64,000 nucleotides of DNA, from NCBI RefSeq assembly GCF_050920415.1, contig NZ_CP169309.1. The stretch is one strand, 5' to 3'. Each line of letters opens with the position of its first letter. Position 1 is the stretch's first letter. Shown here one piece after another: positions 2,215 through 55,614 of the stretch. The notes beneath the pieces are model-generated. The model was not told the DNA's origin, ran no database searches, and saw only the letters and a list, made by a program, of their open reading frames with translations. Made by a program: the position numbers and the translations under genes. This DNA is from Escherichia coli (GTDB lineage: Bacteria > Pseudomonadota > Gammaproteobacteria > Enterobacterales > Enterobacteriaceae).

Positions 2215-2287
2215 TCCCCCCAAAAAATGGCATAGACATTAAACGTGATGACGATTGTGCCAATACTTTCTCCATCAATGACGCCCC

Positions 2288-2317: not shown

Positions 2318-2355
2318 ATATGTGTTGATATTTTTGAGTTGTTAATGGTGTTACT

Positions 2356-3441: not shown

Positions 3442-3452
3442 AGGCTTTTTAC
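3428..3452 (+). terminator. Rho-independent terminator (gccttc-cgcagt-gaaggc + TTTTT)
   Basis: 6-bp perfect stem plus T-run overlapping the stop of the 65-aa ORF. Confidence 0.5.
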
Positions 3453-3591
3453 TTTGTGGTAATGGGCGGCTGGTGGGTGTTAGCGGCACCTGCCAGCCAT
3501 CTGCTCATGTGTTGAGGTCACAAGCAAACCTCAGGCCCATCTGCTTTGCGCAAAAGCGGTATGAGCCTATCAGAGAAGTGCTTATTGATCT

Positions 3592-4677
3592 ATGGCTAAT
3601 ACTGTAAAAATATCCAGTTGTGAGTTAATCAACACTGATTGCCTGGAATTTATCCAGACCTTATCGGAAAACTCTGTCGATCTTATAGTCACAGACCCGC
3701 CATATTTTAAAGTGAAGCCCGAGGGCTGGGATAACCAGTGGAAGGGCGACGATGATTACCTAAAATGGCTGGACCAGTGTCTGGCTCAGTTCTGGCGGGT
3801 ACTGAAGCCTGCCGGAAGTCTTTACCTGTTTTGTGGTCATCGCCTGGCATCTGATATCGAAATCATGATGCGTGAGCGCTTTAATGTGCTGAACCACATT
3901 ATCTGGGCGAAGCCGTCCGGACGCTGGAACGGGTGCAACAAAGAAAGCCTGCGGGCGTATTTCCCGGCAACAGAGCGCATTCTGTTTGCCGAACATTATC
4001 AGGGGCCATATCAGCCAAAAAATGCCGGCTATGCGGCAAAGGAGCGCGAGCTTAAACAACACGTCATGGCCCCGCTGATTTTTTACTTTCGTGATGCGCG
4101 TGAATCACTGGGAATAACGTCCAAACAGATAGCGGAAGCCACCGGAAAGAAAAACATGGTGTCGCACTGGTTTGGTACCAGTCAGTGGCAGTTACCGAAC
4201 GAAGCTGATTACAGAAAACTGCAGGCGCTGTTCGCGCGTGTTGCAGAAGAAAAACACCAGCGTGGGGAGCTGGCAACGCCACACCAACTGCTGGTCAGCA
4301 CATACAGTGAACTGAACCGGCAATATGCCAGTCTGCTTGAGGAATACAAATCTCTGCGGCGTTATTTTTCTGTATCGGCCGCCGTTCCTTATACGGATGT
4401 CTGGACGCATAAGCCCGTACAGTATTATCCGGGTAAGCATCCCTGCGAAAAACCGGCGGATATGTTGCGTCAGATAATTTCTGCCAGCAGTCGTCCGGGG
4501 GATGTGGTTGCGGATTTTTTTATGGGATCGGGGGCAACAATAAAAGCAGCAATGGGATTGGGGCGTCGCACGATTGGGGTTGAACTTGAGTCCGGGCGTT
4601 TTGAACAAACAGTTGGTGAAATATTGGTGCTGAACGATAAATTGCGAAATGCACAATTAGATAAGAACAGGAGCTAA
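3592..4677 (+). CDS. DNA methyltransferase, beta-class (N6-adenine or N4-cytosine); apparently orphan
   Basis: Motif IV DPPY near N-terminus (LIVTDPPYF), motif I FxGxG-like (DFFMGSGAT) near C-terminus; no restriction endonuclease ORF adjacent. Confidence 0.85.
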   Translation: MANTVKISSCELINTDCLEFIQTLSENSVDLIVTDPPYFKVKPEGWDNQWKGDDDYLKWLDQCLAQFWRVLKPAGSLYLFCGHRLASDIEIMMRERFNVLNHIIWAKPSGRWNGCNKESLRAYFPATERILFAEHYQGPYQPKNAGYAAKERELKQHVMAPLIFYFRDARESLGITSKQIAEATGKKNMVSHWFGTSQWQLPNEADYRKLQALFARVAEEKHQRGELATPHQLLVSTYSELNRQYASLLEEYKSLRRYFSVSAAVPYTDVWTHKPVQYYPGKHPCEKPADMLRQIISASSRPGDVVADFFMGSGATIKAAMGLGRRTIGVELESGRFEQTVGEILVLNDKLRNAQLDKNRS

Positions 4678-5197
4678 TCCTCGATTAATATCTAAGCCAA
4701 GCAGGATGCTTGGAAGTTCTGATATATTCTTATCGTTTTTCGGTATTTAAAACTGATTTTCGCTGGTTGCGAAAGCACGTGGTCGGGCACTGCGTTCACA
4801 CATGCAGGAGGGTGTGAAGTCAGCTTTTTTTCTGTGTATTCAGATGGCGTTCTGATTCTATAACGAGTTACGTGGACATCAGGGATGGAGAGAATAGGAA
4901 CGCCATCTTAATACATTTTCCCCGTTTATTTGATATATCTTCCGGATAAGGGATTAGGTCTGGTTTTTTATGTCATTCAATAACGCTCTTCTATACTGTA
5001 TACAATACTTTATCCTGGCAGTGTGTTTAAAACCTGAACTTATCCTTTGTTTCGTTTATAGACAGAAGGGTTAATATCGACTTATCATCAGCAGGATGGC
5101 AACAGATGTGTAAGCAGCTGGTCACCAGTTATACTTCAGTGGTACTTCTGAGTGCTTCTCTCCGTGAAATGATTATCATCCAGATGACAGGAGTAGA

Positions 5198-5476
5198 GTG
5201 AATATTGATGATATTTCCAGGTGCTCCAGCTTGTTGCAGCGTATTGAGGATGTTAATGCTGAACGAGCCAGGGCCTTTAGTCGTTTGACAGTTATATTTT
5301 CTACCCCTGATCGCCTTTCAGGAAAGAACATTGTTTTATTAAACAGTGATGCCATCCATAAGGTTTTTGAAGAGTTCATGGCTGCTAATTCAGAATTGCT
5401 GGCTCTTGTTGAGGAATACAACGAGATAGCCAGCCGTGTCGGTATGGATGAATTCAACGTCATACTTCGTGGATAA
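5198..5476 (+). CDS. Hypothetical protein (92 aa), GTG start with AGGAG RBS
   Basis: ORF preceded by AGGAG at 5187-5191 and followed by a strong terminator. Confidence 0.45.
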   Translation: MNIDDISRCSSLLQRIEDVNAERARAFSRLTVIFSTPDRLSGKNIVLLNSDAIHKVFEEFMAANSELLALVEEYNEIASRVGMDEFNVILRG

Positions 5477-5499
5477 AAACATGCTTCATATTTTCTGTT

Positions 5500-5524
5500 A
5501 GCTCGCTACGGCGAGCTTTTTTTG
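5500..5524 (+). terminator. Rho-independent terminator (agctcgc-tacg-gcgagct + T-run)
   Basis: 7-bp perfect stem, tetraloop, T-run of 8. Confidence 0.65.
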
Positions 5525-5657
5525 TATCTGAGCCACACCTGGCGCACATCAAAAACACAGAGCCTTTCAGGAGGTGCTTACGGGATTGTCAGTGTGACTT
5601 TCACTGTGGGCTGGTAACCATCTGGCGCAGGCTCGTCTACGCAAAGGAAAAGTCACG

Positions 5658-6083
5658 ATGTTAGGTATTTTCAAAAAGAAAACCCGCAAGGCCATCACAG
5701 AAGTGAAGAAGATGGAGAACCGTGATGCGGTGGAGGCGACCGTCTGGGGCGCATATTCCATTGCATATGCCGACGGCACCTGCGATGCGAAAGAAATCGC
5801 AGTACTGGAGAAAACTATTGCTGCGCTTCCTGCTTTTGCACCGTTCTCTGGTGAGATTGCCCAGATGAGCGCCAATATCCGCGCCCGTTATGAAGCGTCA
5901 CCGCGTAGTGCGAATGCGCATGCATTGCGTGAGCTGGCTGATGTGGCGGGGACAACTGAGGCGGTTGACGTGCTTTGCCTCTGTCTGGATATCGCTGATC
6001 AGGATGGCATTGGTCCGGATGAAGAAGCGCAGCTCAAGAAAATTGCACAGGCGCTTCAGTTACCACTGGAGCAGTATCTGTGA
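5658..6083 (+). CDS. TerB-like (tellurite-resistance TerB / DjlA N-terminal domain family) protein
   Basis: 141-aa helical protein whose acidic C-terminal motif (LCLCLDIADQDGIGPDEEAQLKKIAQAL) is typical of TerB-domain proteins. Confidence 0.55.
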   Translation: MLGIFKKKTRKAITEVKKMENRDAVEATVWGAYSIAYADGTCDAKEIAVLEKTIAALPAFAPFSGEIAQMSANIRARYEASPRSANAHALRELADVAGTTEAVDVLCLCLDIADQDGIGPDEEAQLKKIAQALQLPLEQYL

Positions 6084-6232
6084 AAAGTGCGGGCCTTGTG
6101 CTGGCTGCCATCCTGTTGTTTCTGGTAGTGGCAGTGGATTTCACTGGATGGCTGATGTCGGTACTGGCTGATGGTGTGCTGGTGGCGATGGTAACGGTCT
6201 TACTCTGGCCTTTACTTCGCAAATCTGAATAA
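6080..6232 (+). CDS. Possible small hydrophobic membrane protein (about 50 aa, GTG start overlapping the TerB-like stop)
   Basis: Unannotated frame reading VKSAGLVLAAILLFLVVAVDFTGWLMSVLADGVLVAMVTVLLWPLLRKSE; two hydrophobic stretches; start codon uncertain. Confidence 0.3.
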   Translation: MKSAGLVLAAILLFLVVAVDFTGWLMSVLADGVLVAMVTVLLWPLLRKSE

Positions 6233-6317
6233 ACAGCCTACAAAAGGTATCTGCGGGTACCTTTGATAAAGTTTTTTAGGGCCGCTGATGGTCCTTTTTA
6301 TTTACAGGAGAATAAAT

Positions 6318-6710
6318 ATGTCTGAACCCTTATCCGGTTCCGGCACTGCTGTGGCGCTCGGCGGGGCGACGGTATTCGGGCTGTTTACCGGGACGGATTT
6401 CGGGATTGTATTTGGTGCGTTCGCTGGTGCGTTATTTGTGGCAACAATGCCGCAGACACTTTCAGCCTGGCGTGTGGCTGCACATTTTCTGGTGTCCTTT
6501 ATTGTTGGTGTGCTTGGGGCCCGTGGTGTGGCCGGTTACATGGCGGAACGTATTGGGTTTAACAGTGCTTCCGTTGATGCGTTGTGTGCGGTCCTGGTGT
6601 CGGTGCTCTCAGTAAAAGTCCTGTCATTCATCCACCAGCAGGAGATTACATCACTGGTATCCGGTCTGTTCTCCCGTCAGCGTGGAGGAGGTGGTGGTAA
6701 TGACAAATAA
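6318..6710 (+). CDS. Putative holin (multi-TM membrane protein, Gly-rich C-terminus)
   Basis: ATG at 6318 preceded by AGGAG; about 3 hydrophobic helices; lies upstream of the endolysin. Confidence 0.55.
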   Translation: MSEPLSGSGTAVALGGATVFGLFTGTDFGIVFGAFAGALFVATMPQTLSAWRVAAHFLVSFIVGVLGARGVAGYMAERIGFNSASVDALCAVLVSVLSVKVLSFIHQQEITSLVSGLFSRQRGGGGGNDK

Positions 6711-6978
6711 TCTTCCAGGATTACTGAATGCGGCGTTATGTACGGTTATCGTACTGACGCTTTTTTTCTACCGCAGAAAAGAGTCCCGACACAAACCGCT
6801 GATATCGTGGTGCGCCTGGTGTCTGATGCTGTTGTATGCGATAACGCCGTTAAGTTATCTCTGTGGTCATCCGTTGCCGGCAGACTGGCTGGTAGTGATG
6901 CTGAACCTGGTGTTTGGTGTCATGGTAGTGCGTGCGCGCGGTAATGTTTCAAAAATTTTTGCTTTCCTGAGTGGCTGA
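6700..6978 (+). CDS. Putative holin/antiholin-like small membrane protein
   Basis: 92-aa hydrophobic protein (start MTNNLPGLL) overlapping the preceding gene's end and the endolysin start. Confidence 0.5.
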   Translation: MTNNLPGLLNAALCTVIVLTLFFYRRKESRHKPLISWCAWCLMLLYAITPLSYLCGHPLPADWLVVMLNLVFGVMVVRARGNVSKIFAFLSG

Positions 6979-7525
6979 TATGAAATCGAGAGATGAAATT
7001 TTTGATGAAATCCTCGGAAAAGAGGGGGGGTATGTCAGTCATCCTGACGATACAGGCGGAGCGACGAAGTGGGGAATTACTGAAAAAGTGGCGCGCGCGC
7101 ATGGTTACCGTGGTGATATGCGTGATTTGAGCCGCGGGCAGGCTCTGGAAATCCTTGAGGCAGACTATTGGTATGGACCTCGTTTTGACCAGGTGGCAAA
7201 CCTGTCTCCTGATATTGCTGCAGAACTGTGTGATACCGGGGTAAACATGGGGCCGTCGGTAGCCACAAAAATGCTTCAGCGCTGGCTGAATGTGTTTAAT
7301 CAGAAGGGAATGCTGTATCCGGACATAGTTACAGACGGGGGGATCGGGCCGCGAACCATTAATGCGTTACGTTCTTATCTGAAAAATCGCGGCAGGGATG
7401 GCGAACTGGTACTGGTGAAAGCCCTGAACTGTACGCAGGGTGAGCGTTATCTGGCGCTGGCAGAGAAACGCGAGGCTAACGAGTCGTTTGTCTATGGCTG
7501 GATGAAAGAGCGCGTTGGTTTATAA
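6971..7525 (+). CDS. Endolysin, glycoside hydrolase family 108 with C-terminal peptidoglycan-binding domain
   Basis: N-terminal EILGKEGGYVSHPDDTGGATKWGI motif characteristic of GH108 lysozymes. Confidence 0.85.
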   Translation: MADMKSRDEIFDEILGKEGGYVSHPDDTGGATKWGITEKVARAHGYRGDMRDLSRGQALEILEADYWYGPRFDQVANLSPDIAAELCDTGVNMGPSVATKMLQRWLNVFNQKGMLYPDIVTDGGIGPRTINALRSYLKNRGRDGELVLVKALNCTQGERYLALAEKREANESFVYGWMKERVGL

Positions 7526-7533
7526 ACTCATCG

Positions 7534-7558
7534 AAAAGGTCACTTCGGTGGCTTTTTT
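7534..7558 (+). terminator. Rho-independent terminator with UUCG tetraloop (aaaaggtcac-ttcg-gtggc + T-run)
   Basis: Stem with G-U wobble pairs, UUCG loop, T-run of 6, immediately after the endolysin stop. Confidence 0.5.
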
Positions 7559-7726
7559 ATTGTTCAAAAAACGAAAGAACGGAGGTACGTATGTACGCAC
7601 TGAAAAAGATTACGGTAACTGAAGATGGTCGTCAGTAGACTGGCCCCCTGAATCTCCAGACAACCAGTATCACTTAAATAAGTGATAGTCTTAATACTAG
7701 TTTTTAGACTAGTCATTGGAGAACAG

Positions 7727-8092
7727 ATGATTGATGTCTTAGGGCCGGAGAAACGCAGACGGCGTACCACACAGGAAAAGATCGCAATTGTTCAGCAGAG
7801 CTTTGAACCGGGGATGACGGTCTCCCTCGTTGCCCGGCAACATGGTGTAGCAGCCAGCCAGTTATTTCTCTGGCGTAAGCAATACCAGGAAGGAAGTCTT
7901 ACTGCTGTCGCCGCCGGAGAACAGGTTGTTCCTGCCTCTGAACTTGCTGCCGCCATGAAGCAGATTAAAGAACTCCAGCGCCTGCTCGGCAAGAAAACGA
8001 TGGAAAATGAACTCCTCAAAGAAGCCGTTGAATATGGACGGGCAAAAAAGTGGATAGCGCACGCGCCCTTATTGCCCGGGGATGGGGAGTAA
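7727..8092 (+). CDS. insC: IS2 transposase OrfA (InsC)
   Basis: Translation [41 protein letters not shown]... matches IS2 InsC. Confidence 0.9.
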
Positions 8093-8955
8093 GCTTAGTC
8101 AGCCGTTGTCTCCGGGTGTCGCGTGCGCAGTTGCACGTCATTCTCAGACGAACCGATGACTGGATGGATGGCCGCCGCAGTCGTCACACTGATGATACGG
8201 ATGTGCTTCTCCGTATACACCATGTTATCGGAGAGCTGCCCACGTATGGTTATCGTCGGGTATGGGCGCTGCTTCGCAGACAGGCAGAACTTGATGGTAT
8301 GCCTGCAATCAATGCCAAACGTGTTTACCGGATCATGCGCCAGAATGCGCTGTTGCTTGAGCGAAAACCTGCTGTACCGCCATCGAAACGGGCACATACA
8401 GGCAGAGTGGCCGTGAAAGAAAGCAATCAGCGATGGTGCTCTGACGGGTTCGAGTTCTGCTGTGATAACGGAGAGAGACTGCGTGTCACGTTCGCGCTGG
8501 ACTGCTGTGATCGTGAGGCACTGCACTGGGCGGTGACTACTGGCGGCTTCAACAGTGAAACAGTACAGGACGTCATGCTGGGAGCGGTGGAACGCCGCTT
8601 CGGCAACGATCTTCCGTCGTCTCCAGTGGAGTGGCTGACGGATAATGGTTCATGCTACCGGGCTAATGAAACACGCCAGTTCGCCCGGATGTTGGGACTT
8701 GAACCGAAGAACACGGCGGTGCGGAGTCCGGAGAGTAACGGAATAGCAGAGAGCTTCGTGAAAACGATAAAGCGTGACTACATCAGTATCATGCCCAAAC
8801 CAGACGGGTTAACGGCAGCAAAGAACCTTGCAGAGGCGTTCGAGCATTATAACGAATGGCATCCGCATAGTGCGCTGGGTTATCGCTCGCCACGGGAATA
8901 TCTGCGGCAGCGGGCTTGTAATGGGTTAAGTGATAACAGATGTCTGGAAATATAG
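8050..8955 (+). CDS. insD: IS2 transposase OrfB (InsD), DDE integrase-type
   Basis: 301-aa translation matches IS2 InsD; overlaps insC in the -1 frame as in IS2. Confidence 0.9.
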
Positions 8956-9236
8956 GGGCAAATCCAGTCAGGTTGAGGAAGTGCATGTCCTGGGGGGATA
9001 TGTATCGTATGGAGTTTTACCCGCGTAATACCCATCTGGCAGCAAAAATTGAGTATTGCCGGAACGGGAATATTTCATGTTTGCAGGTAGAGAAAACGGA
9101 TGAGGCTTATATCACTACGCTGAACGGCGATACGATGTCAGCGCCAATGATATAAGACAGTAATTCACCATTTGGATTGTCCGCTCCACCCAACATGTTG
9201 TTTCCTTAAGGTTCCTACACCACAAAGGGAACACTC

Positions 9237-11202
<1,966 letters not shown>

Positions 11203-11419: not shown

Positions 11420-11713
11420 TTATTGTGAGCAATAGACCCGAGCTTCAAGCGGAGTATAAATGCCTAAAGTAATAAAACCGAGCAATCCATTTACGAATGT
11501 TTGCTGGGTTTCAGTTTTAACAACTTTATCTGCGCCACCACAAATTTTGGCTGCATCGACAGTTTTCTTCTGACCAATTCCTGAAACGAAGAAATGATGA
11601 GTGATGGTTTCCTTCGGTGTTACTGTTGTAGGTTTGTTTTCAACTGTAAACGTCTGTTGAGCACATCCAGAGATAAGCAGCGCCAGTGTGAAAGTGAGTA
11701 GCGTTTTTTTCAT
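11420..11713 (-). CDS. bor: Bor lipoprotein (lambda Bor/Iss family)
   Basis: 97-aa translation with lipobox LLISGC, recognisably matching lambda Bor; minus strand between lysis region and cos as in lambda. Confidence 0.9.
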   Translation of the reverse strand: MKKTLLTFTLALLISGCAQQTFTVENKPTTVTPKETITHHFFVSGIGQKKTVDAAKICGGADKVVKTETQQTFVNGLLGFITLGIYTPLEARVYCSQ

Positions 11714-11937
11714 CGTGTGATTCCCGTTGTGTTTTTAAGTTTGGTGCATCGTATTTGTGGAAATTTAAACAAAACCTAAACAATGAGTTGAAATCTCATA
11801 TTGTTAATGTTTATTAAAGTATGCCAGATGTGCTGTATCTTTACTGTATACCCAGATTAACTATGGCCACAGCACCGACTGGTAACTCCTGTGTGGGAGT
11901 GCCGGCTACTGAGGCGGATCAAACCGGACGTTATGGT

Positions 11938-43730: not shown

Positions 43731-44621
43731 ATGATCAAGAAGACAACGGAAATTGATGCCATCTTGTTAAATCTCAATAAGGCTATCGATGCCCACTACC
43801 AGTGGCTGGTGAGTATGTTTCACAGCGTGGTCGCGAGAGATGCCAGTAAGCCAGAAATAACGGATAACCATTCTTATGGACTGTGCCAGTTTGGTCGGTG
43901 GATTGATCATCTGGGGCCACTCGATAACGATGAATTACCTTACGTTCGGCTAATGGATTCTGCCCATCAACATATGCATAACTGTGGTCGGGAATTAATG
44001 TTGGCTATTGTTGAAAATCACTGGCAGGACGCGCATTTCGACGCCTTTCAGGAAGGGTTGCTTTCTTTTACTGCGGCATTAACCGATTACAAAATTTATT
44101 TGCTGACGATCCGTAGCAATATGGATGTTTTGACGGGATTGCCGGGTCGTCGGGTTCTTGATGAATCCTTCGATCATCAGTTACGCAATGCTGAACCTCT
44201 GAATCTTTATTTAATGTTGTTGGATATTGACCGATTTAAATTGGTTAATGATACCTACGGGCATTTAATCGGCGATGTAGTATTACGCACCCTGGCAACT
44301 TACTTAGCCAGTTGGACGCGCGATTACGAAACGGTTTATCGCTACGGGGGCGAAGAATTTATCATTATTGTCAAAGCGGCTAATGATGAAGAAGCATGTC
44401 GTGCAGGTATCAGAATTTGCCAGTTAGTCGATAACCATGCCATCACACATTCTGAAGGGCATATCAACATTACCGTTACAGCAGGTGTGAGTCGCGCATT
44501 TCCTGAAGAGCCTCTGGATGTGGTCATTGGAAGAGCGGACCGGGCAATGTATGAGGGTAAGCAAACCGGAAGAAATCGCTGCATGTTTATTGACGAACAA
44601 AATGTGATTAACCGAGTTTAA
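43731..44621 (+). CDS. dgcZ: Zinc-sensing diguanylate cyclase DgcZ (YdeH)
   Basis: 296 aa from ATG 43731; GGEEF motif (RYGGEEFIIIV) present. Confidence 0.9.
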   Translation: MIKKTTEIDAILLNLNKAIDAHYQWLVSMFHSVVARDASKPEITDNHSYGLCQFGRWIDHLGPLDNDELPYVRLMDSAHQHMHNCGRELMLAIVENHWQDAHFDAFQEGLLSFTAALTDYKIYLLTIRSNMDVLTGLPGRRVLDESFDHQLRNAEPLNLYLMLLDIDRFKLVNDTYGHLIGDVVLRTLATYLASWTRDYETVYRYGGEEFIIIVKAANDEEACRAGIRICQLVDNHAITHSEGHINITVTAGVSRAFPEEPLDVVIGRADRAMYEGKQTGRNRCMFIDEQNVINRV

Positions 44622-44654
44622 GCTCCGTTTAACATTCATTGAGAAAACTGATGC

Positions 44655-44764
44655 TACTGTGTCAACGATCCGTTATCAGTGCAGGAAAATGCCTGTTAGC
44701 GTAAAAGCAAAACACAAATCTATCCATGCAAGCATTCACCGCCGGTTTACTGGCGGTTTTTTTT
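44655..44764 (+). ncRNA. mgrR: Probable PhoP-activated small RNA MgrR (ends approximate)
   Basis: PhoP-box-like direct repeat GTTTA-N6-GTTTA at about 44616-44631, followed about 100 nt later by a terminator (caccgccggt-ttac-tggcggt + T-run at about 44737-44766); matches the known mgrR position downstream of dgcZ. Confidence 0.5.
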
Positions 44765-44839
44765 CGCCGTCATAAAAATCAGGCCCCTTGTACACAGTTG
44801 TAACAAGGGGCCGGTTAGGTGAGGGGTTATCTCCGTTCA

Positions 44840-44935
44840 TTAGTCATCCCATTTGTGGCTGAAATACGCGGCCAGAAAACCAGAAAATAAAATTATTCCC
44901 AGTACGGCCATAAAAACATTCATATTACCCAGCAT
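44840..44935 (-). CDS. mgtS: Small membrane protein MgtS (YneM), 31 aa
   Basis: Minus-strand translation MLGNMNVFMAVLGIILFSGFLAAYFSHKWDD*; below the ORF-track size cutoff; followed by a hairpin terminator on the minus strand. Confidence 0.8.
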   Translation of the reverse strand: MLGNMNVFMAVLGIILFSGFLAAYFSHKWDD

Positions 44936-45061
44936 TATTTGCCTCCGTTTATGGTGTGGTGTGTTTCCTCGCTTACCTTAATTTTCATCTCAATGAGAAA
45001 GATATTAGCAGAGGTAACCTAAACGAAGGCTGAATTAAATTTTTATTGTGTTCGACTTAAA

Positions 45062-46249
45062 TCAACAAAGCGCGGGCTGCCCCCACGGTCTTGCACGAAT
45101 CCCTTTTAACATCAGCACCCACGCAGCAATGATCACCAACGCTAAGATGATAAACAGCGAGGAAGGCGGCAGGCTGGTTAGCACTACGCCACTCACTAAT
45201 GGATTAATCGCAGCACCAAGCCAGCCTAAAGACTGGGCGGAAAAATAGCTGGCTTTCATTCCTGGCGGCGCAATATGGTCAATCAACATATACTCGCCCG
45301 GCGCATAAATGATTTCACCGACAGTAAATACCGCAGCTGACATACCCCACATTAGCAGGCTGTTGCCGGAAAAAATAAAACCGACCAGCCCGATGACGAA
45401 ACAGAGGGTGCCTGCTGTCATCAGCGCGCGGATGTTAGCCGGATTAAGGCGGCGGCCCACGGAATACTGCAACGTAACCACCATCGCAGCATTAACCGGA
45501 AGAACAACCGCGACCACCTTTTCGGCAAAATCACCATCAGCAATTACCATCACATATTGTGAAATGCATGAAGCAAATGCTCCGCTAACAAAAGAAGCCA
45601 GAAAGCCAGAGCAGGTAAACCACAACAGTGCTTTATCTTGTAATAAAACTTTCGGCGACCAGACACTGCCTGTTTCCGTGGCGATGATTTTCTCGCTGCG
45701 CTTTACCCAAATTTGAATGAAAAGCATGGGAAACGCGGAACAGATAGCTGCCAGCCAAAAGGGCAGATTGATGCTCTGCATCACCAACAGCGTGCCGAGC
45801 GGCGGACCGATGGTCCAGCCAATGTTGAGCATGGTGTAGTTGATTGAGAAGATTTTCGTTTTGCTGGTGGACGAAAGATTGTCGGCAAACCAGGCTTTCA
45901 ACACGGTAGCAAAAACGGAATAGGCGCAGTTAATAAGGGCAAAAAAGAGCACCACCAGCGTCACGTTATTCACTAAAGGAATGGCAATAAAACCGCTGGC
46001 GAAGGCGGTAATTGACAGTAACATATAGCGTTTCTTGTCGAACTTATCCGCCAGGATACCAAAACCGAGGCTAAAAACGACGCCAATAGTGAGCGCAATT
46101 GTCATCGCATAACCGATTAGATCGACACTCAGGCTGTACTGGCGACTCAAGTAAATGGTCATAAATGGCAGCGTAGCGCCGCGTCCGATGGTTAATAACA
46201 ACGACGAGGCAAGAAGGGCGCTGGTAGAGCGTCGTAGGGATAAGTTCAT
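45062..46249 (-). CDS. ydeE: MFS efflux transporter YdeE
   Basis: 395-aa 12-TM MFS protein recognised as YdeE. Confidence 0.9.
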   Translation of the reverse strand: MNLSLRRSTSALLASSLLLTIGRGATLPFMTIYLSRQYSLSVDLIGYAMTIALTIGVVFSLGFGILADKFDKKRYMLLSITAFASGFIAIPLVNNVTLVVLFFALINCAYSVFATVLKAWFADNLSSTSKTKIFSINYTMLNIGWTIGPPLGTLLVMQSINLPFWLAAICSAFPMLFIQIWVKRSEKIIATETGSVWSPKVLLQDKALLWFTCSGFLASFVSGAFASCISQYVMVIADGDFAEKVVAVVLPVNAAMVVTLQYSVGRRLNPANIRALMTAGTLCFVIGLVGFIFSGNSLLMWGMSAAVFTVGEIIYAPGEYMLIDHIAPPGMKASYFSAQSLGWLGAAINPLVSGVVLTSLPPSSLFIILALVIIAAWVLMLKGIRARPWGQPALC

Positions 46250-46443
46250 TTGTCTGTCCGGCAGTGCGTTTCGTTATGCTTTGTTTTAGAGATGTAAAGA
46301 AATAGCATGGCAAAAATCCGAAGTATAGCGACTTATTTGCGCATTAATGCCGTCGTAACCGGCGACTAACGAATCAACTGTTAAAGAAAAGTAAATTCAG
46401 CTAAGTTGATTGCTTACAAAAGATGAAATTCAGAGGCGGTAGA

Positions 46444-47343
46444 ATGTCGCGAAAAGATGGGGTGTTGGCGCTACTGGTAGTGGTCGTATGGGGGCTAAAT
46501 TTTGTGGTCATCAAAGTGGGGCTTCATAACATGCCACCGCTGATGCTGGCCGGTTTGCGCTTTATGCTGGTCGCTTTTCCGGCCATCTTTTTTGTCGCAC
46601 GACCGAAAGTACCACTGAATTTGCTGCTGGGGTATGGATTAACCATCAGTTTTGCGCAGTTTGCCTTTCTGTTTTGCGCCATTAACTTTGGTATGCCTGC
46701 TGGACTGGCCTCGCTGGTGTTACAGGCACAGGCGTTTTTTACTATTGTGCTCGGTGCGTTTACTTTTGGCGAACGGCTGCACGGTAAGCAACTGGCGGGG
46801 ATCGCGTTAGCGATTTTTGGCGTACTGGTGTTAATCGAAGATAGTTTTAACGGTCAGCATGTGGCGATGCTCGGCTTTATGTTGACCCTGGCGGCAGCAT
46901 TTAGTTGGGCGTGCGGCAATATCTTCAATAAAAAAATAATGTCACACTCAACGCGTCCGGCAGTGATGTCGCTGGTCATCTGGAGCGCATTAATCCCGAT
47001 CATTCCTTTCTTTGTTGCCTCGCTGATTCTCGATGGTTCCGCAACCATGATTCACAGTCTGGTTACTATCGATATGACCACCATCTTGTCTCTGATGTAT
47101 CTGGCATTTGTGGCGACAATCGTTGGTTATGGGATCTGGGGGACGTTACTGGGACGCTATGAAACCTGGCGGGTTGCACCGCTATCGTTACTGGTGCCTG
47201 TAGTTGGACTGGCAAGTGCGGCACTATTGCTGGATGAACGCTTAACGGGTCTGCAATTTTTCGGTGCGGTGCTCATTATGACCGGGCTGTATATCAATGT
47301 ATTTGGCTTGCGGTGGCGTAAAGCCGTGAAAGTGAGAGGCTAA
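46444..47343 (+). CDS. eamA: O-acetylserine/cysteine exporter EamA (YdeD)
   Basis: 299 aa from ATG 46444 (MSRKDGVLALLVVVVWGLNF...). Confidence 0.9.
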   Translation: MSRKDGVLALLVVVVWGLNFVVIKVGLHNMPPLMLAGLRFMLVAFPAIFFVARPKVPLNLLLGYGLTISFAQFAFLFCAINFGMPAGLASLVLQAQAFFTIVLGAFTFGERLHGKQLAGIALAIFGVLVLIEDSFNGQHVAMLGFMLTLAAAFSWACGNIFNKKIMSHSTRPAVMSLVIWSALIPIIPFFVASLILDGSATMIHSLVTIDMTTILSLMYLAFVATIVGYGIWGTLLGRYETWRVAPLSLLVPVVGLASAALLLDERLTGLQFFGAVLIMTGLYINVFGLRWRKAVKVRG

Positions 47344-47373
47344 AAAGCCCCGAGATGTCGGGGCCAGAATAAA

Positions 47374-47592
47374 CTATATAGCGTGTTGATTATAATAGGG
47401 CACGCCAAGCGCATCCGATTTATCACTGCCTGTGCTCATGTGGTTAAAATCAAATGGTGATTGTTCCGGTGATGGGGGAACAACCACCACATTGCCACAG
47501 GAAGTAACAACCGGCTGCGTGGTTTGTTCCGCAAAGCTCTGCGCAGAGAAGAGAATAAGCGCGGTTACCATTGCGGATAAAAGTGGTTTCAT
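47374..47592 (-). CDS. marB: Multiple antibiotic resistance protein MarB
   Basis: 72-aa translation MKPLLSAMVTALILFSAQSFA... recognised as MarB. Confidence 0.9.
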   Translation of the reverse strand: MKPLLSAMVTALILFSAQSFAEQTTQPVVTSCGNVVVVPPSPEQSPFDFNHMSTGSDKSDALGVPYYNQHAI

Positions 47593-47623
47593 GATTGCCT
47601 CAGTGACGTTGTCACGTTATCAA

Positions 47624-48007
47624 CTAGCTGTTGTAATGATTTAATGGATGTAAAAAGCGCGATTCGCCCTGCATATTGGTCATCCGGTATTTATGTGGCG
47701 GAACATCAAAGTAATTTTTGAAGGTTCGGGTCAGAGTTTGTTGCGACTCGAAGCCATATCGTTCTGCCAGATAGAGTATCGGCTCGTTACTTTCCTTCAG
47801 CTTTTGCGCGATTTCCGTCATCTTACGGCTGCGGATGTATTGGCCTAATGAATGACCGGTTTCTTTTTTAAACATCCGTTGCAGGTGCCATTTGGAGTAA
47901 CCCGAACGCTCTGACACTTTCTCCAGTGACAGTGGCGATTCCAGGTTGTCCTCGATCCAGTCCAAAATGCTATGAATGGTAATAGCGTCAGTATTGCGTC
48001 TGGACAT
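47624..48007 (-). CDS. marA: AraC-family transcriptional activator MarA
   Basis: [46 protein letters not shown]... recognised as MarA. Confidence 0.95.
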
Positions 48008-48027
48008 CGTCATACCTCTTTTTTTGT

Positions 48028-48462
48028 TTACGGCAGGACTTTCTTAAGCAAATGCTCAAGTGTTGCCACTTCGTCCGCCGTCAGGTTTTTTGTTAATTCT
48101 TGATGCAGGTCCTGGCCAACTAATTGATGGCATTGTTTACATATTGCCGCGCCGCTGGTGGTAAGTTTTACCAGTACGCCGCGCTTATCATTCGGGTTCG
48201 GCAACCTTTCCACCCAGCCTTTACAAACCAGGCGATCCAGCATACGGGTCAGCGCTCCCAGGTCGACCGACAACACTTTTTTCAGTTCAACCGGAGTAAT
48301 ACACGACGCGCAGCGGATAGAGCAGAGCACCTTAAACTGTGCCGCGGTAATATCCAGCGGAGACAGATACTCGTTAAGCAGGCGATCTTTCTTCTGATTA
48401 ACCATATGGATTAAGCGACCCAATGGAATAATTTCATTGAACAGATCGCTGGTACTTTTCAC
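48028..48462 (-). CDS. marR: Transcriptional repressor MarR
   Basis: 144-aa translation recognised as MarR. Confidence 0.95.
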
Positions 48463-48673
48463 ATTAGTTGCCCTGGCAAGTAATTAGTTGCAGGGGATAA
48501 TATTGCCCAGGCAAGTATAAGTCAAATGAATGAATTGACCGATGCCACGTTTTGCTAAATCGGTTCAAGTTTTGGTCAATGCGATTCAAGGCTAGCTAAA
48601 GAGTGACACTTTATCGTTGTTTACCCCTTATACTTTTCGCTGATAACCCAGATACACAGGATAACAACCACTA
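48463..48673 (-). promoter_or_regulatory. marO operator/promoter region with two MarR-binding palindromes (TTGCC-N-GGCAA) and the divergent marC promoter
   Basis: ttgccctggcaa at about 48470-48481 and ttgcccaggcaa at about 48507-48518, between divergent marR and marC. Confidence 0.8.
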
Positions 48674-49339
48674 ATGTTAGATTTGTTTAAAGCAATAGGC
48701 CTGGGGCTGGTGGTGTTACTGCCGTTAGCTAACCCATTAACAACTGTCGCGTTATTTCTTGGTCTGGCAGGCAACATGAACAGTGCCGAACGTAATCGTC
48801 AGTCGTTGATGGCCTCGGTGTACGTCTTTGCCATCATGATGGTGGCGTATTACGCCGGGCAACTGGTGATGGATACATTTGGCATTTCGATTCCCGGTCT
48901 GCGAATTGCAGGCGGCTTAATCGTCGCGTTTATCGGTTTTCGGATGCTCTTTCCGCAACAGAAAGCGATTGATTCACCGGAAGCGAAAAGCAAGTCGGAA
49001 GAGCTGGAAGATGAACCCAGCGCCAATATTGCCTTTGTACCTCTGGCAATGCCTAGTACCGCCGGTCCGGGAACCATTGCGATGATTATTAGCTCGGCGT
49101 CCACTGTGCGTCAGAGTTCAACCTTCGCTGATTGGGTACTGATGGCTGCGCCGCCGCTGATCTTTTTCCTGGTGGCGGTTATTTTGTGGGGAAGTCTACG
49201 CAGCTCTGGCGCAATTATGCGGCTGGTGGGCAAGGGGGGAATTGAAGCGATCTCCCGTCTGATGGGATTCCTGCTGGTATGTATGGGTGTGCAGTTTATT
49301 ATTAACGGCATCCTGGAAATCATTAAAACGTATCATTAA
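48674..49339 (+). CDS. marC: Inner membrane protein MarC
   Basis: 221-aa translation recognised as MarC. Confidence 0.9.
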
Positions 49340-49363
49340 AAAAGGCCCGAATGGGCCTTTCAA

Positions 49364-50554
49364 CTATTGCGTCTGTTCTTCGAGTGTCACTGGCCAGCGG
49401 CGAAAAATGATGATTGACCATATTAACGCGGCAAAAGCAGGCACCGCGCCCACATAACCAATCATCGACATTGACCAGTGCAGACTGACCTGATTACCTA
49501 CCAACGCGCCAGCGCCGATTCCAATATTAAATATTCCCGAGAATAGCGCCATCGCGACGTCGGTGGCATCTGGTGCCAGCGCCAGCACTTTAACCTGCAT
49601 ACCAAGCCCGATGATCATCATCGCGATCCCCCAGAAAATACTCAGCACCCCGAGGTGTATTTCACTGTTCGCCGCAGTTAGCAGTAATGCAAGGCAGACC
49701 AGCAACAGCGCAATCGCCGTACTCACCAACGTAGACGCATACTGATTGCCCAGTTTACCGAAAATCACGCTGCCAATAATGCCTGCACCACCGAGTAATA
49801 ACAGTAATGCCGTGGCAAAGTTGGCGCTGAATCCCGCAATGTTTTGCACAAAAGGCTCGATATAGCTGTATGCCGTGTAATGGGCGGTGACAACCACCAC
49901 AGTTAACAAATAAATGCTCATCAATGCCGGGCGGCGGAACAATAGCGGAAGGCTTTTCAACGACCCTGAATGCTCGCTGGGGAGTAAGGGAAGTAACTTA
50001 ATCAGGCACAGAAGGGTGATAAATGCCCCGATACCGATCGCGAAGAAGGTCATACGCCAACCGAAATACTGCCCCACAATGCGCCCGAGAGGTAAACCTA
50101 ATACCATCGCCAGAGCTGTACCGGTGGCAATTAAACTCAATGCCTGTGCTCGCTTTCCGGCCGGAGCCATACGGATCGCCAGAGACGCCGTAATCGACCA
50201 GAAAATCGCATGTGCAAAAGCTACACCAATGCGACTGATCACCAGAACGGTAAAGCTCCACGACAAAAAAGACAGTACATGGCTGGCAATAAACACCACA
50301 AACAGGCAGATCAGTAATTTGCGGCGTTCAACCTGGCTTGTCATTAGCATAAAAGGCAATGACATTAGCGCCACTACCCATGCATAAATGGTTAACATGA
50401 TACCGACTTGAGCGGTTTGCATATGGAAACTTTGTGCGATGTCAGAAAGCAGGCCAACAGGGACAAATTCGGTAGTATTGAAGATGAAAGCGGCGACTGC
50501 CAGCGTAACTACCCGTAGCCACGCCACTTTGCGGGAAACAGTGTTTGTTGTCAT
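49364..50554 (-). CDS. sotB: MFS sugar efflux transporter SotB (YdeA)
   Basis: 396-aa translation recognised as SotB. Confidence 0.9.
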
Positions 50555-50701
50555 AACAGATTATCGGGTGAGTTGCGAAAAGTAATGAAATGATCTTAAA
50601 ACGGTTAATGATGTGAATACAATGCATTTGTGATCTAGATCGCATCTCCATCTCTCTGACGGTTGTTCTGTCACGCGTCAGAGAGTTGTTAACATCACAT
50701 T

Positions 50702-51817
50702 TTAATGACGATCAGGAAGGTCTGGCGTTTTGGTGGCTGATGGTAAAGGTGGCCTCACAGGGGAACGAGGCCTGTTGTCCAGTAGTTCTTCGTTACTAAT
50801 TTTGGGCGGAATTTCATTTTTTACAAAAAGTTTTAAAATCTTGCGTGCCATACGATGGATACTTTTATCTTCACTTAATAATGCCGGTATCAACACATCA
50901 TTCAGGTCATTTTCATTAGGTTTCATAAAAATTTGAAAGTGCAATAACATATTTGTAAAAAATAAGAATAGACTCTGAAAGTGAGGTATTTCTTTGTTTG
51001 ATAAAAGCGATAAAAAGCAGATACAAACTTCAGGTAGTACTTGTTTGTTAGAACCTAATGAATCCATGAGGTTTTGTAATAACTCCTCTTTTAATGGGCT
51101 ATCCTTTATGTCGTAGATGGCGGTGATTAAGTTTGGGTTTTTATTCGCGAACCACCTGTGGACCTGCGGCTTATTCCATAGTCGGGGGAGTATGACAAAA
51201 TTACCACGAGAGATAAAGTTCAGTACGAATAAATCAAACTGACGTAAGTAGTCTGCAGCGGTATGATGCTCAGGAGGAAGAGGTTCAATATGTGGAGTAT
51301 GAGACCTTTTGATGGGGACGCCGGGGCTGATCATTGGAAATTGTTCAATAAAGTCATTAAGAAACAGAAAGAGCACACGCTCGACGCCGGTCTGAAAGGC
51401 CCGACCCATAGTGACAGGCTTTGGGTCGGGAGCACAATAAATATTAATTTCCCCATCGTGGCGAAAATTATCTAAATAAATAGGGCTTAAATTTATTACT
51501 ACCTGAAATTCAATATTTTCTTTATGTCTTCCATTCTTAACAGGATAAGTGAGTTTAAATTGAACCTTTTCATTGTATAGCGTGTCGTTATCTCGGAAAG
51601 TTGTCCTCTGTATATAAGATAGGTTATCAAGATTATTGAATATCTTTTTGGTGTTTGAATTGATGTTTAAAGACGTACGCCACTCCTCATCACATATTAT
51701 AATGCTGAGCGCATCAATAAAATCCTTCAAAACTTCTTTTACCTGAGGTGCAATATTGCGAACGGGAAAATCATCAGGAAGTGAGATGAAATTGCTGATG
51801 CTTACTGGCGTAACCAT
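50702..51817 (-). CDS. yneK: Uncharacterised protein YneK
   Basis: 371-aa ORF at the K-12 yneK position between sotB and yneJ. Confidence 0.75.
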   Translation of the reverse strand: MVTPVSISNFISLPDDFPVRNIAPQVKEVLKDFIDALSIIICDEEWRTSLNINSNTKKIFNNLDNLSYIQRTTFRDNDTLYNEKVQFKLTYPVKNGRHKENIEFQVVINLSPIYLDNFRHDGEINIYCAPDPKPVTMGRAFQTGVERVLFLFLNDFIEQFPMISPGVPIKRSHTPHIEPLPPEHHTAADYLRQFDLFVLNFISRGNFVILPRLWNKPQVHRWFANKNPNLITAIYDIKDSPLKEELLQNLMDSLGSNKQVLPEVCICFLSLLSNKEIPHFQSLFLFFTNMLLHFQIFMKPNENDLNDVLIPALLSEDKSIHRMARKILKLFVKNEIPPKISNEELLDNRPRSPVRPPLPSATKTPDLPDRH

Positions 51818-51900
51818 ATTTGCCCCATATAGTCATAAGTCATCGGAACATCAATATATAGAGCATATTAGCCGCATGAACTATCAAAAATAGCTCATTG

Positions 51901-52776
51901 CTAACTCTGTTTTGCTGAGTCAGGCACATCGAGCAGTTGAATAAACGCTTCAAGAGGACGCGTTTTCGCACCGCGACGCCAGACCAGCCAGGTTGTTAAC
52001 CAACGCCATTGCTCAGCCAACGGCCACGCTTCAACCTGGTGATGCCCCGGCATACTTTCCAGCATTGAGCGTGGGATAAGTGCAATGCCCGCACCCGCAA
52101 CCACACAGGCTAACATACCGTGATACGACTCCATTTCATGGATGGTCCCCGGCGCTGCACCGTCGGCATGAAACCAGCTCTCGAAGTGGCGACGATACGA
52201 ACAATTGGCGCGGAAGGCATAAATGTTACTGCCATTCACCTGACTGGCACGGGTTACTGGCGCATGTCCTTGAGGCGTGACAATCATCAGCTCCTCGCGG
52301 TACACCGGTATCCCGTCAATGGCAGTATGGTTAATGGGCCCATCAATAAACGCCGCATTCAGTTTTCCCTCCAGCACCCCTTCCAGCATAGTGCCGGAAG
52401 GGCCGGTGGAAAGTGAAAACTGAATTTTGGGATAACGACGGTTATATTCCGCCAGCGTGGCCGGAATGCGCACTGCAGCGGTGCTTTCCAGCGAACCAAG
52501 AGAAAATAAACCTTGCGGCTCATCGCCAGCGACAACGCTCCGCGCTTCATCCACTAACGCGAGAATTTGTTGGCTATAGCGTAAAAAGTTATGCCCGGCA
52601 GGCGAGAGACGTAAACGCTGATTCTCGCGAATAAACAGATCAACCCCCAGTTCTGTTTCCAGCTGGCGTAGACGGGTAGTGAGATTCGACGGGACGCGAT
52701 GCACTTTTGCTGCAGCCTGGGTAATGCTGCCAGCTTCGGCAACCGCGTTGAACATCTCCAGTTGGGTCAGATCCAT
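51901..52776 (-). CDS. yneJ: LysR-type transcriptional regulator YneJ
   Basis: N-terminal LysR HTH; divergent from sad. Confidence 0.85.
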
Positions 52777-52876
52777 GGCATTCTCAATTCGTGAATAAGT
52801 GGCTTAATATTATTCATTTTCAAGCAAGAGTAAATCTGCGTATCTTTTTACCATAACCCATAAAGGAGATACCCCG

Positions 52877-54265
52877 ATGACCATTACTCCGGCAGCCCAT
52901 GCAATTTCGATAAATCCTGCCACTGGTGAACAACTTTCTGTGCTGCCGTGGGCTGGCGCTGACGATATAGAAAACGCACTTCAGCTGGCGGCAGCAGGCT
53001 TTCGCGACTGGCGCGAGACAAATATAGATTATCGTGCTGAAAAACTGCGTGATATCGGTAAGGCTCTGCGCGCCCGTAGCGAAGAAATGGCGCAAATGAT
53101 TACCCGGGAAATGGGCAAACCGATCAACCAGGCGCGTGCTGAAGTGGCGAAATCGGCGAATTTGTGTGACTGGTATGCAGAATATGGTCCGGCGATGCTG
53201 AAGGCGGAACCTACGCTGGTGGAAAATCAGCAGGCGGTTATTGAGTATCGACCGTTGGGGACGATTCTGGCGATTATGCCGTGGAATTTTCCGTTATGGC
53301 AGGTGATGCGTGGCGCGGTGCCCATCATTCTTGCAGGTAACGGCTACTTACTTAAACATGCGCCGAATGTGATGGGCTGTGCACAGCTCATTGCCCAGGT
53401 GTTTAAAGATGCGGGGATCCCGCAAGGCGTATATGGCTGGCTGAATGCTGACAACGACGGTGTCAGTCAGATGATTAAAGACTCGCGCATTGCTGCTGTC
53501 ACAGTGACCGGAAGTGTTCGTGCGGGAGCGGCTATTGGCGCACAGGCTGGAGCGGCACTGAAAAAATGTGTACTGGAACTGGGCGGTTCGGATCCGTTTA
53601 TTGTACTTAACGATGCCGATCTGGAACTGGCGGTTAAAGCGGCGGTAGCCGGACGTTATCAGAATACTGGACAGGTTTGTGCGGCGGCAAAACGCTTTAT
53701 CATCGAAGAGGGAATTGCTTCGGCATTTACTGAACGTTTTGTAGCAGCTGCGGCAGCCTTGAAAATGGGCGATCCACGTGATGAAGAGAACGATCTCGGA
53801 CCCATGGCTCGCTTTGATTTGCGTGATGAGCTACATCATCAGGTAGAAAAAACTCTGGCTCAAGGTGCACGTTTGTTACTGGGCGGGGAAAAGCTGGCTG
53901 GGGCAGGTAACTACTATCCGCCAACGGTTCTGTCGAATGTCACACCAGAAATGACTGCATTTCGGGAAGAGATGTTTGGCCCCGTTGCGGCAATCACTAT
54001 TGCAAAGGATGCAGAACATGCGCTGGAACTGGCTAATGATAGCGAGTTCGGTCTTTCAGCGACCATTTTCACCACCGACGAAACACGGGCCAGACAGATG
54101 GCGGCACATCTGGAATGCGGTGGCGTGTTTATCAATGGTTATTGTGCCAGTGATGCGCGAGTTGCCTTTGGTGGCGTGAAGAAGAGTGGCTTTGGTCGTG
54201 AACTTTCCCATTTCGGTTTACATGAGTTCTGTAATATCCAGACGGTGTGGAAAGACCGGATCTGA
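52877..54265 (+). CDS. sad: NAD-dependent succinate-semialdehyde dehydrogenase Sad (YneI)
   Basis: 462-aa aldehyde dehydrogenase recognised as Sad. Confidence 0.9.
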
Positions 54266-54328
54266 CGCTACATATTCAGCTCTGATATACTCGCAGGTCT
54301 TTTCAGACCTGCGGTCCAGGAGTAGAAA

Positions 54329-55255
54329 GTGGCAGTCGCCATGGATAATGCAATTTTAGAAAACATCTTGCGGCAAGTGCGGCCGCTCATTGGTCAGGGT
54401 AAAGTCGCGGATTATATTCCGGCGTTGGCTACGGTAGACGGTTCCCGGCTGGGCATAGCTATCTGTACCGTTGACGGACAGCTTTTTCAGGCCGGAGACG
54501 CACAAGAACGTTTTTCCATTCAGTCTATTTCCAAAGTGCTTAGTCTCGTTGTCGCCATGCGTCATTACTCCGAAGAGGAAATCTGGCAACGCGTCGGCAA
54601 AGATCCGTCTGGATCACCGTTCAATTCTTTAGTGCAACTGGAAATGGAGCAGGGTATTCCGCGTAATCCGTTTATTAATGCCGGTGCGCTGGTGGTCTGC
54701 GATATGTTGCAAGGGCGATTAAGCGCGCCACGGCAACGTATGCTGGAAGTCGTGCGCGGCTTAAGCGGTGTGTCTGATATTTCCTACGATACGGTGGTAG
54801 CGCGTTCCGAATTTGAACACTCCGCGCGAAATGCGGCTATCGCCTGGCTGATGAAGTCGTTTGGCAATTTCCATCATGACGTGACAACCGTTCTGCAAAA
54901 CTACTTTCATTACTGCGCTCTGAAAATGAGCTGTATAGAGCTGGCCCGGACGTTTGTCTTTCTGGCTAATCAGGGGAAAGCTATTCATATTGATGAACCT
55001 GTGGTGACGCCAATGCAGGCGCGGCAAATTAACGCGCTGATGGCGACCAGTGGTATGTACCAGAACGCGGGGGAGTTTGCCTGGCGGGTGGGACTACCGG
55101 CAAAATCTGGCGTTGGTGGCGGTATTGTGGCGATTGTTCCGCATGAAATGGCCATCGCAGTCTGGAGCCCGGAACTGGATGATGCCGGTAACTCGCTTGC
55201 GGGCATTGCTGTCCTTGAACAATTAACGAAACAATTAGGGCGTTCGGTTTATTAA
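54329..55255 (+). CDS. glsB: Glutaminase 2 (GlsB/YneH)
   Basis: 308-aa translation recognised as GlsB. Confidence 0.9.
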
Positions 55256-55614
55256 TGCAGTCTCTCGATCCACTCTTCGCGCGTTTATCCCGTTCAAAAT
55301 TTCGCTCTCGCTTTCGTTTGGGTGTGAAAGAGCGTCAGTATTGTCTGGAGAAAGGCGCGCCAGTCATCGAACAACATGCGGCGGATTTTGTCTCTAAACG
55401 TCTTGCTCCGGCATTACCGGCTAACGACGGTAAGCAAACCCCCATGCGCGGGCATCCGGTGTTTATCGCTCAGCACGCCACTGCAACCTGTTGTCGCGGT
55501 TGTCTGGCTAAGTGGCATAACATTCCGCAGGGTGTTTCGTTAAGCGAGGAACAACAACGTTATATCGTGTCGGTAATCTATCACTGGTTGGTTATACAGA
55601 TGAATCAGCCATGA
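55255..55614 (+). CDS. yneG: Uncharacterised protein YneG
   Basis: 119-aa ORF overlapping the glsB stop. Confidence 0.8.
   Translation: MQSLDPLFARLSRSKFRSRFRLGVKERQYCLEKGAPVIEQHAADFVSKRLAPALPANDGKQTPMRGHPVFIAQHATATCCRGCLAKWHNIPQGVSLSEEQQRYIVSVIYHWLVIQMNQP

Follow-up and report, generated by a model that had tools for sequence, protein, structure and literature searches.

Is the short interval between dgcZ and ydeE in this Escherichia coli genome the low-Mg locus that is known from K-12, is it intact, and does it hold the small RNA MgrR and the 31-residue protein MgtS, as a preliminary description of this DNA had proposed? All lines of evidence gathered for the 64-kb stretch of DNA analysed here (hereafter the window) lead us to the first of these conclusions with near certainty: the well-known low-Mg locus of E. 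coli occupies the interval from dgcZ to ydeE, with an mgrR gene on the plus strand and a convergent mgtS operon on the minus strand, both of which PhoQ/PhoP would induce in this strain. The identities and boundaries of the genes, the structure of the RNA, the synteny and the selective constraint are established by the present analysis. The locus as such is already known biology and nothing in this strain departs from the established picture.

A scan of the whole 64 kb at the Rfam gathering threshold returned a single match, RF01407 (STnc560, 'Hfq binding RNA'), at positions 44633-44846 of the plus strand, which covers the model over its full length (positions 1-214 of 214) with 277.4 bits (gathering score 55; E = 2.4e-63) and falls on the very interval to which MgrR had been assigned. 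In the K-12 MG1655 record the genes follow one another in the order dgcZ, mgrR (an ncRNA, b4698), mgtT (b4775), mgtS (b4599) and ydeE. An alignment with this record over 511 nt shows five differences and no indels and places mgrR, mgtT and mgtS at the positions given in Table 1, so that the proposed location between dgcZ and ydeE is borne out. The mgrR gene is identical to b4698 at 97 of 98 nt, the single change being C for T at 44670 (U4C, nt 4 of the RNA). On the minus strand the predicted peptide is found exactly as foreseen, since the mgtS frame translates to MLGNMNVFMAVLGIILFSGFLAAYFSHKWDD; it matches the NCBIfam profile NF033842 over residues 1-31 of 31 (80.6 bits, cutoff 35, E = 5.8e-23) as well as the Pfam profile PF22865 (88.2 bits, cutoff 27, E = 2.2e-25). 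It is because of the Rfam match, the 97/98 identity to K-12 and the profile matches of MgtS that we identify the two genes, and not because of the PhoP-box-like repeat alone on which the initial proposal had drawn.

Two points of nomenclature and delimitation follow from the Rfam match. The RF01407 model (214 nt) has more than twice the length of mature MgrR, since 34 nt of it are promoter and a further 82 nt, with the mgtS terminator hairpin, lie downstream; because the model takes in promoter DNA and the mgtS terminator, its coordinates are no gene boundaries. Furthermore STnc560, which is a Salmonella name, is MgrR, on the basis of the coordinate overlap between the Rfam match and K-12 mgrR; in the literature we found no paper that gives the two names together.

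Table 1. Features of the dgcZ-ydeE interval (positions counted from the first nucleotide of the window)
Feature	Position	Strand	Basis and remarks
dgcZ	ends 44621	+	left flank; stop codon TAA 44619-44621
PhoP-box-like repeat AGTTTA-AGCTC-CGTTTA (half-sites A and B)	44615-44631	+	-52 to -36 of mgrR start; 2 mismatches
Putative half-site C, CATTGA	44637-44642	+	11 bp after B, 12 nt upstream of -10
Extended -10, TGC-TACTGT	44652-44660	+	read from sequence; ends 7 nt before mgrR start
mgrR	44667-44764	+	98-nt Hfq-dependent sRNA; RF01407 and K-12 b4698 coordinates
MgrR 5' stem-loop	44671-44701 (nt 5-35)	+	predicted fold
MgrR A-rich single-stranded linker	44702-44737 (nt 36-71)	+	predicted fold
MgrR terminator stem	44738-44757, U8 tail to 44764	+	intrinsic-terminator scan
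mgtT	44736-44840	-	34 aa (MNGDNPSPNRPLVTTVYKGPDFYDGEKKPPVNRR); ORF list; PF23498; K-12 b4775
GC-rich terminator-like hairpin, then UGAUUUUUAU	44782-44812 (U-run 44774-44778)	-	inside mgtT frame
mgtS (formerly yneM)	44840-44935	-	31 aa, single-pass inner-membrane protein; ORF list, profiles, K-12 b4599
CDS58	44935-44988	-	17-codon upstream ORF (MKIKVSEETHHTINGGK); read from sequence; PIRT-seq supplement
Putative mgtS promoter, AATTCA-GCCTT-CGTTTA (45036-45020), -10 TAATAT (45007-45002)	45002-45036	-	read from sequence
ydeE	45062-46249	-	right flank

The preliminary description had spoken of an unannotated pair, and both words need to be qualified. The locus is unannotated in the list of open reading frames of at least 60 aa, and mgrR is indeed still left out of the automatic (PGAP) annotation of RefSeq; however, RefSeq annotates mgtS together with mgtT in a strain that is 100% identical over 44500-45100, and the K-12 record contains mgrR, mgtT and mgtS. 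Similarly, both members of the pair are present, but the minus-strand unit also holds the published mgtT and CDS58 reading frames. The remark that small genes escape a list with such a length threshold is borne out: four features that are real or at least translated, mgrR, mgtS, mgtT and CDS58, are hidden within 400 bp. As to the origin of the window as a whole, it was considered whether it corresponds to NZ_CP169399.1 throughout; this was rejected, since the window contains 1331 bp extra at 7636-8966, with 99.7% identity elsewhere.

The locus is nearly ubiquitous in the species. Of the 5426 complete E. coli genomes against which 44500-45100 was run by megablast, 5416 contain it, and 2204 complete E. 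coli records are at least 99% identical to the present allele over the 321-nt query 44615-44935. But could the copy at hand be decayed and non-functional, so that its match to MgrR and MgtS is merely historical? What could be held to indicate this are the one substitution in MgrR and a V15T exchange in MgtT relative to K-12. Yet in the predicted fold nucleotide 4 of MgrR takes part in no base pair, and among species it is naturally C or T, which speaks against decay, as does the abundance of almost identical alleles. Moreover, MgtS, its Shine-Dalgarno sequence, both promoters and the linker and terminator of MgrR are identical to K-12. We consider the chance that the locus is defunct to be vanishingly small and treat it as intact in what follows.

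The predicted fold of MgrR comprises a 5' stem-loop, an A-rich linker and a terminator and has a free energy of -25.9 kcal/mol (z = -2.9). The terminator, an 8-bp stem with six G-C pairs and a T8 run (-13.7 kcal/mol, z = -4.1), lies 107 nt downstream of the PhoP-box-like repeat, where a strong terminator had been noted at a distance of about 100 nt. For comparison 19 loci of other species were gathered by searching genome contigs for an exact 22-nt pattern from the MgrR linker; this set consists of Escherichia, Citrobacter, one Raoultella metagenome bin and one mis-binned 'Caldithrix' contig, and the exact pattern gave no match in Salmonella. Both helices are kept in the consensus fold over the 19 sequences, with a compensatory switch between UA and AU of one pair in six sequences and a change from GC to AU of one terminator pair. 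The linker is unpaired both in the single-sequence fold and in the consensus. None of its positions varies among the 19 sequences, which for 22 nucleotides follows from the selection of the set but applies to those outside the 22-mer as well. Structure probing of MgrR, as summarised in PMC6239178, agrees with the predicted fold. With its 5' stem-loop, its single-stranded A-rich (ARN) linker and its U8-tailed terminator MgrR has the architecture of an Hfq-dependent base-pairing RNA, suited to the binding of Hfq and of targets.

We also looked at the pairing of MgrR with the eptB mRNA. The best predicted duplex joins nt 54-69 of MgrR to positions -8 to +8 of eptB, covers the start codon and has an energy of -17.6 kcal/mol; with the prediction restricted to the linker this value is reached by 122 of 1000 shuffles (12%) and is not significant, and when both RNAs were used at full length shuffles scored equally well. 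It is by way of the identity to the K-12 RNA, which extends over the pairing region, that the present MgrR may be expected to pair with eptB.

On the opposite strand, mgtS carries a Shine-Dalgarno sequence (GGAGG, 44942-44946) 6 nt before its ATG, and its product is hydrophobic over roughly residues 6-25. Of the 19 loci of other species 17 have an MgtS reading frame next to MgrR; C. amalonaticus seems to possess mgrR with no mgtS beside it. Codon changes relative to six Citrobacter genomes amount to 6-11 synonymous and 0-2 nonsynonymous ones, which, together with the ribosome-binding site, marks mgtS as a genuine coding gene under purifying selection. In its putative promoter a 12-nt spacer ending in TGC separates CGTTTA (45025-45020) from the -10 hexamer. 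The corresponding box has four mismatches to the PhoP consensus here and two in Citrobacter, where AGTTCA-GCCTT-TGTTTA occupies the equal position, and the region upstream of mgtS showed PhoQ-dependent activity in mgtS-mgtT reporters (PMC11429745). Downstream of mgtS the minus strand can form a hairpin at 44782-44812 (-21.9 kcal/mol, z = -3.75), whose stem arms are conserved in Citrobacter. A simple terminator scan made no call at this minus-strand site because the stem is bulged; the hairpin and the U-run that follows it nevertheless make it a good candidate for the terminator of the mgtS transcript.

Where then does PhoP bind to activate mgrR? The direct repeat noted in the interval is present and overlaps the stop codon of dgcZ. 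By itself, however, such a repeat is weak evidence and statistically undistinctive: the 64-kb window contains 24 boxes with at most two mismatches to the consensus (T/G)GTTTA-N5-(T/G)GTTTA, or about one per 2.7 kb, and 201 boxes with at most three mismatches as compared to about 128 expected. Its position, -52 to -36, is exactly the range given for the PhoP motif of mgrR by Moon & Gottesman 2009, as quoted in PMC8313858, and we take the repeat as the putative PhoP site. A sigma-70 promoter scan called no promoter for mgrR or mgtS, which we attribute to the missing -35 elements, as is the case in activator-dependent promoters, rather than to a lack of promoters.

The conservation of the individual half-sites allows for a different arrangement, in which the activating PhoP dimer binds to B and C (CGTTTA-ACATT-CATTGA, 44626-44642) and the A+B repeat is secondary, or all three half-sites are used. 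Among 18 other Escherichia and Citrobacter genomes half-site B (CGTTTA, 44626-44631) is 97% and half-site C 88% conserved, the latter with CATTG in 17 of the 18 and TATTG in E. albertii, and no indels occur from B to the -10 element, whose TGn-TAnnnT pattern is kept in all genomes compared. Half-site A is poorly conserved in the same 18 genomes, where it degrades to TAGTTA, TAGTTG or TGATTT (two to three mismatches), and indels are present just upstream of it. In addition, the spacing of 12 nt between the proximal half-site, here C, and the -10 element is shared by mgrR, the putative mgtS promoter and the prophage gene bor, which in the window has a perfect PhoP box (TGTTTAGGTTTTGTTTA, 11782-11766) followed after 12 nt by TACGAT. 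This spacing, reportedly described by Lejona et al. in 2003, is said to be the canonical geometry of PhoP-activated promoters, which would favour the use of B and C. Then again, B+C (-41 to -25) deviates from the consensus at four positions and A+B at only two, the site documented at -52 to -36, according to what is quoted in PMC8313858, is A+B rather than B+C, and functional PhoP boxes have been described at other spacings relative to the -35 region (PMC7667037). Activation from B and C, or from all three half-sites together, strikes us as a tentative proposal that is rather unlikely to be correct.

In this strain, as in others, low Mg would act through PhoQ/PhoP to induce both convergent units. 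On the plus strand a promoter with an extended -10, GTTTA-type half-sites in phase with one another and no -35 element would yield the 98-nt MgrR, and on the minus strand a similar promoter would drive an operon composed of CDS58, mgtS and mgtT. MgrR together with Hfq would then repress eptB, ygdQ and pitA, and MgtS would stabilise the importer MgtA and act on the phosphate symporter PitA, both raising intracellular Mg. The PhoP dependence, the Hfq binding, the targets of MgrR and the mechanism of MgtS in this scheme are ones that we take from the literature or infer for this strain. Convergent PhoPQ-dependent transcription, the repression of eptB by the 98-nt MgrR and the need of MgtS for accumulation of the Mg importer MgtA have been reported (10.1101/2021.06.30.450655), as have the PhoQ/PhoP induction of the mgtS-mgtT unit in low Mg (PMC11429745), the repression by MgrR and Hfq of ygdQ and of eptB, which encodes a lipopolysaccharide phosphoethanolamine transferase (PMC6239178), and the repression of pitA by MgrR (PMC8313858). 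It is established that MgrR alters lipopolysaccharide modification and the sensitivity to antimicrobial peptides, and that MgtS raises intracellular Mg.

The minus-strand unit is richer than the preliminary description suggested. CDS58, mgtS and mgtT are three open reading frames chained by one-base stop-start overlaps of the sequence TAATG, the stop codon of CDS58 overlapping the start of mgtS and the stop codon of mgtS overlapping the start of mgtT (at 44840). The mgtT gene was found by ribosome profiling (Weaver et al., 10.1101/511675) and forms an operon with mgtS (PMC11429745); RefSeq labels the present allele a 'hypothetical protein' with the gene name mgtT. The peptide and DNA sequences of CDS58 are an exact entry in supplementary file 5 of the PIRT-seq study (PMC12350097). 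MgtT matches Pfam PF23498 with 93.3 bits (cutoff 27). The lack of conservation described below leaves this membership of the E. coli protein intact and bears only on selection at the protein level.

But are the MgtT and CDS58 peptides themselves of use to the cell? In our comparison of Escherichia and Citrobacter MgrR and MgtS proved to be strongly constrained; on MgtT and CDS58 no protein-level constraint was seen. CDS58 is not conserved beyond E. coli, its start being lost in E. whittamii and its stop in E. albertii. Only E. coli, E. albertii and one other Escherichia species keep the 34-aa frame of mgtT intact; its C-terminus is altered in E. whittamii and it meets a stop after 14 codons in most Citrobacter. 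Beyond Escherichia the protein is thus not conserved, and the codon changes are mostly nonsynonymous. Within Escherichia the synonymous and nonsynonymous changes in mgtT stand at 1:5, 3:6 and 1:3, as opposed to the 6-11:0-2 of mgtS in the comparison with Citrobacter. Moreover, the terminator hairpin of mgtS encodes residues 10-20 of MgtT, and residues 26-34 are encoded opposite the MgrR terminator, to which the final 29 nt of mgtT are antisense. The residues that appear to be conserved are of just this origin, RPLV...KGP stemming from the mgtS terminator and KKPPVNRR from the complement of the MgrR terminator, and the exchange of V15 in K-12 for T15 in the present MgtT corresponds to a 2-nt difference in the terminator hairpin loop.

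These findings point to mgtT, and likewise CDS58, as a translated by-product, a reading frame that happens to be open in Escherichia, with a sequence dictated by RNA elements. The restriction of the intact frame to three Escherichia species, the preponderance of nonsynonymous changes as against the mostly synonymous ones of mgtS, and the two hairpins that dictate residues 10-20 and 26-34 all agree with this explanation, as does the observation that the 90% protein cluster of MgtT is confined to Escherichia or Shigella among the named members listed. Furthermore, neither deletion nor overexpression of mgtT caused a phenotype (PMC11429745). Against it stand the evidence for translation that ribosome profiling, epitope tagging and PIRT-seq have given and the good conservation, Citrobacter included, of the first 13 codons and of the TAATG/TGATG junction. 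Also, substitutions in mgtT are few, which leaves its contrast to mgtS in synonymous and nonsynonymous changes statistically weak, and a young, lineage-specific function is conceivable. On balance we believe that the by-product explanation is probably, though by no means surely, the right one.

The geometry of the terminators invites a further thought. If loss of a spacer of about 32 nt in Escherichia left the terminators of mgtS and mgrR no more than 14 nt apart and thereby opened mgtT, translation of mgtT through the mgtS terminator might couple the two units. Ribosomes on mgtT would melt the mgtS terminator hairpin and thus cause read-through, and the resulting transcripts, antisense to the 3' end of MgrR, would give rise to transcriptional interference or would pair with the MgrR terminator and its Hfq-binding site. 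In that event mgtT would be a regulatory reading frame whose peptide is immaterial, and the two PhoP-induced units would be coupled via translation. This is speculation drawn from the geometry and from the lack of protein-level constraint in mgtT, and we rate it as quite improbable. The mildly new point, which is incidental to the identification of the locus, is that mgtT looks like a young reading frame dictated by RNA structure.

Taken together, the worth of the locus is that of a calibration case rather than of a discovery. The present mgrR is like that of K-12 (b4698) in its position between dgcZ and ydeE, in its convergence with mgtS, in the identical linker and terminator and in the equal position of the PhoP-like motif at -52 to -36, and differs from it by U4C only. 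MgtS (YneM) shows no detectable difference from b4599, its 31 residues and its coding DNA being identical. MgtT (b4775, PF23498) and CDS58 agree with the published reading frames in frame, TAATG overlaps and length, and MgtT differs by its T15. Like canonical PhoP-activated promoters, finally, the promoter of mgrR and the putative one of mgtS are devoid of a -35 element, and they share with these the phasing of a conserved GTTTA half-site 11 bp from its partner and the distance of 12 nt from a half-site to a TGn-extended -10. Unlike those promoters, however, the boxes of mgrR and mgtS contain four mismatches each in the canonical register, and the better repeat of mgrR, with two mismatches, lies one helical turn farther upstream.

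The mgtS and MgrR terminators are separated by 14 nt in Escherichia, whereas most Citrobacter loci among L003-L021, the other-species loci gathered by an exact 22-nt pattern from the MgrR linker, carry an extra 30-40 nt between them as compared to the window (44765-44778). It is because the two terminators lie so close together in Escherichia that the mgtT frame reaches the MgrR terminator: the frame reads through the terminator hairpin of mgtS, and its last part lies within the sequence complementary to the MgrR terminator. Since the frame is intact in only some Escherichia among the species compared and its codon changes are mostly nonsynonymous, these alignments give no indication that mgtT is under selection at the protein level.

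Small features of the window and their positions
Feature	Size or sequence	Coordinates	Strand	Remark
mgtT	34 aa	44736-44840	-	absent from the preliminary description
Upstream ORF (CDS58)	17 codons, MKIKVSEETHHTINGGK	44935-44988	-	stop overlaps mgtS start
Perfect PhoP box	TGTTTAGGTTTTGTTTA	11766-11782	-	upstream of ORF 11420-11713 (-)

The short ORF preceding mgtS has the same sequence as CDS58 from the PIRT-seq study (PMC12350097), and either its start or its stop is missing in E. whittamii and E. albertii.

Linkage of mgrR and mgtS is not universal, as a Citrobacter amalonaticus locus (L011, NZ_PQMB01000002.1) contains MgrR, with the 22-nt pattern at 684-705 (-), but its 4 kb yielded no MgtS-like ORF, and the sequence that follows MgrR is unrelated. 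Both genes are present and identical to those of K-12 on a contig assigned to a 'Caldithrix sp.' metagenome bin (L006, SMXE01000224.1), which over 10.7 kb (1-10712) shares 95% identity with window 44665-55375 and almost certainly belongs to Escherichia, having been placed in a Caldithrix genome by a binning error.

The limits of mgrR differ from those of the Rfam family that matches it. The RF01407 model is 214 nt long and extends from promoter DNA across the 98-nt RNA and the terminator of mgtS into the first bases of that gene, so that its match covers 44633-44846 as compared to 44667-44764 for the gene, and annotating mgrR directly from the match coordinates would introduce an error of more than 100 nt.

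A lambdoid prophage takes up the window's initial 35 kb or so. A 1331-bp segment inserted in its lysis region (7636-8966) has no counterpart in strain NZ_CP169399.1, which is otherwise nearly identical. The segment carries two overlapping transposase ORFs of 136 and 301 aa, which we take to resemble IS2. Just one PhoP box in the window is perfect; it is followed after 12 nt by a TACGAT -10 element, and the gene downstream encodes a prophage bor-family lipoprotein. In K-12, bor genes are PhoP-controlled, and the bor box provides, within the same window, an example of the canonical PhoP promoter geometry.
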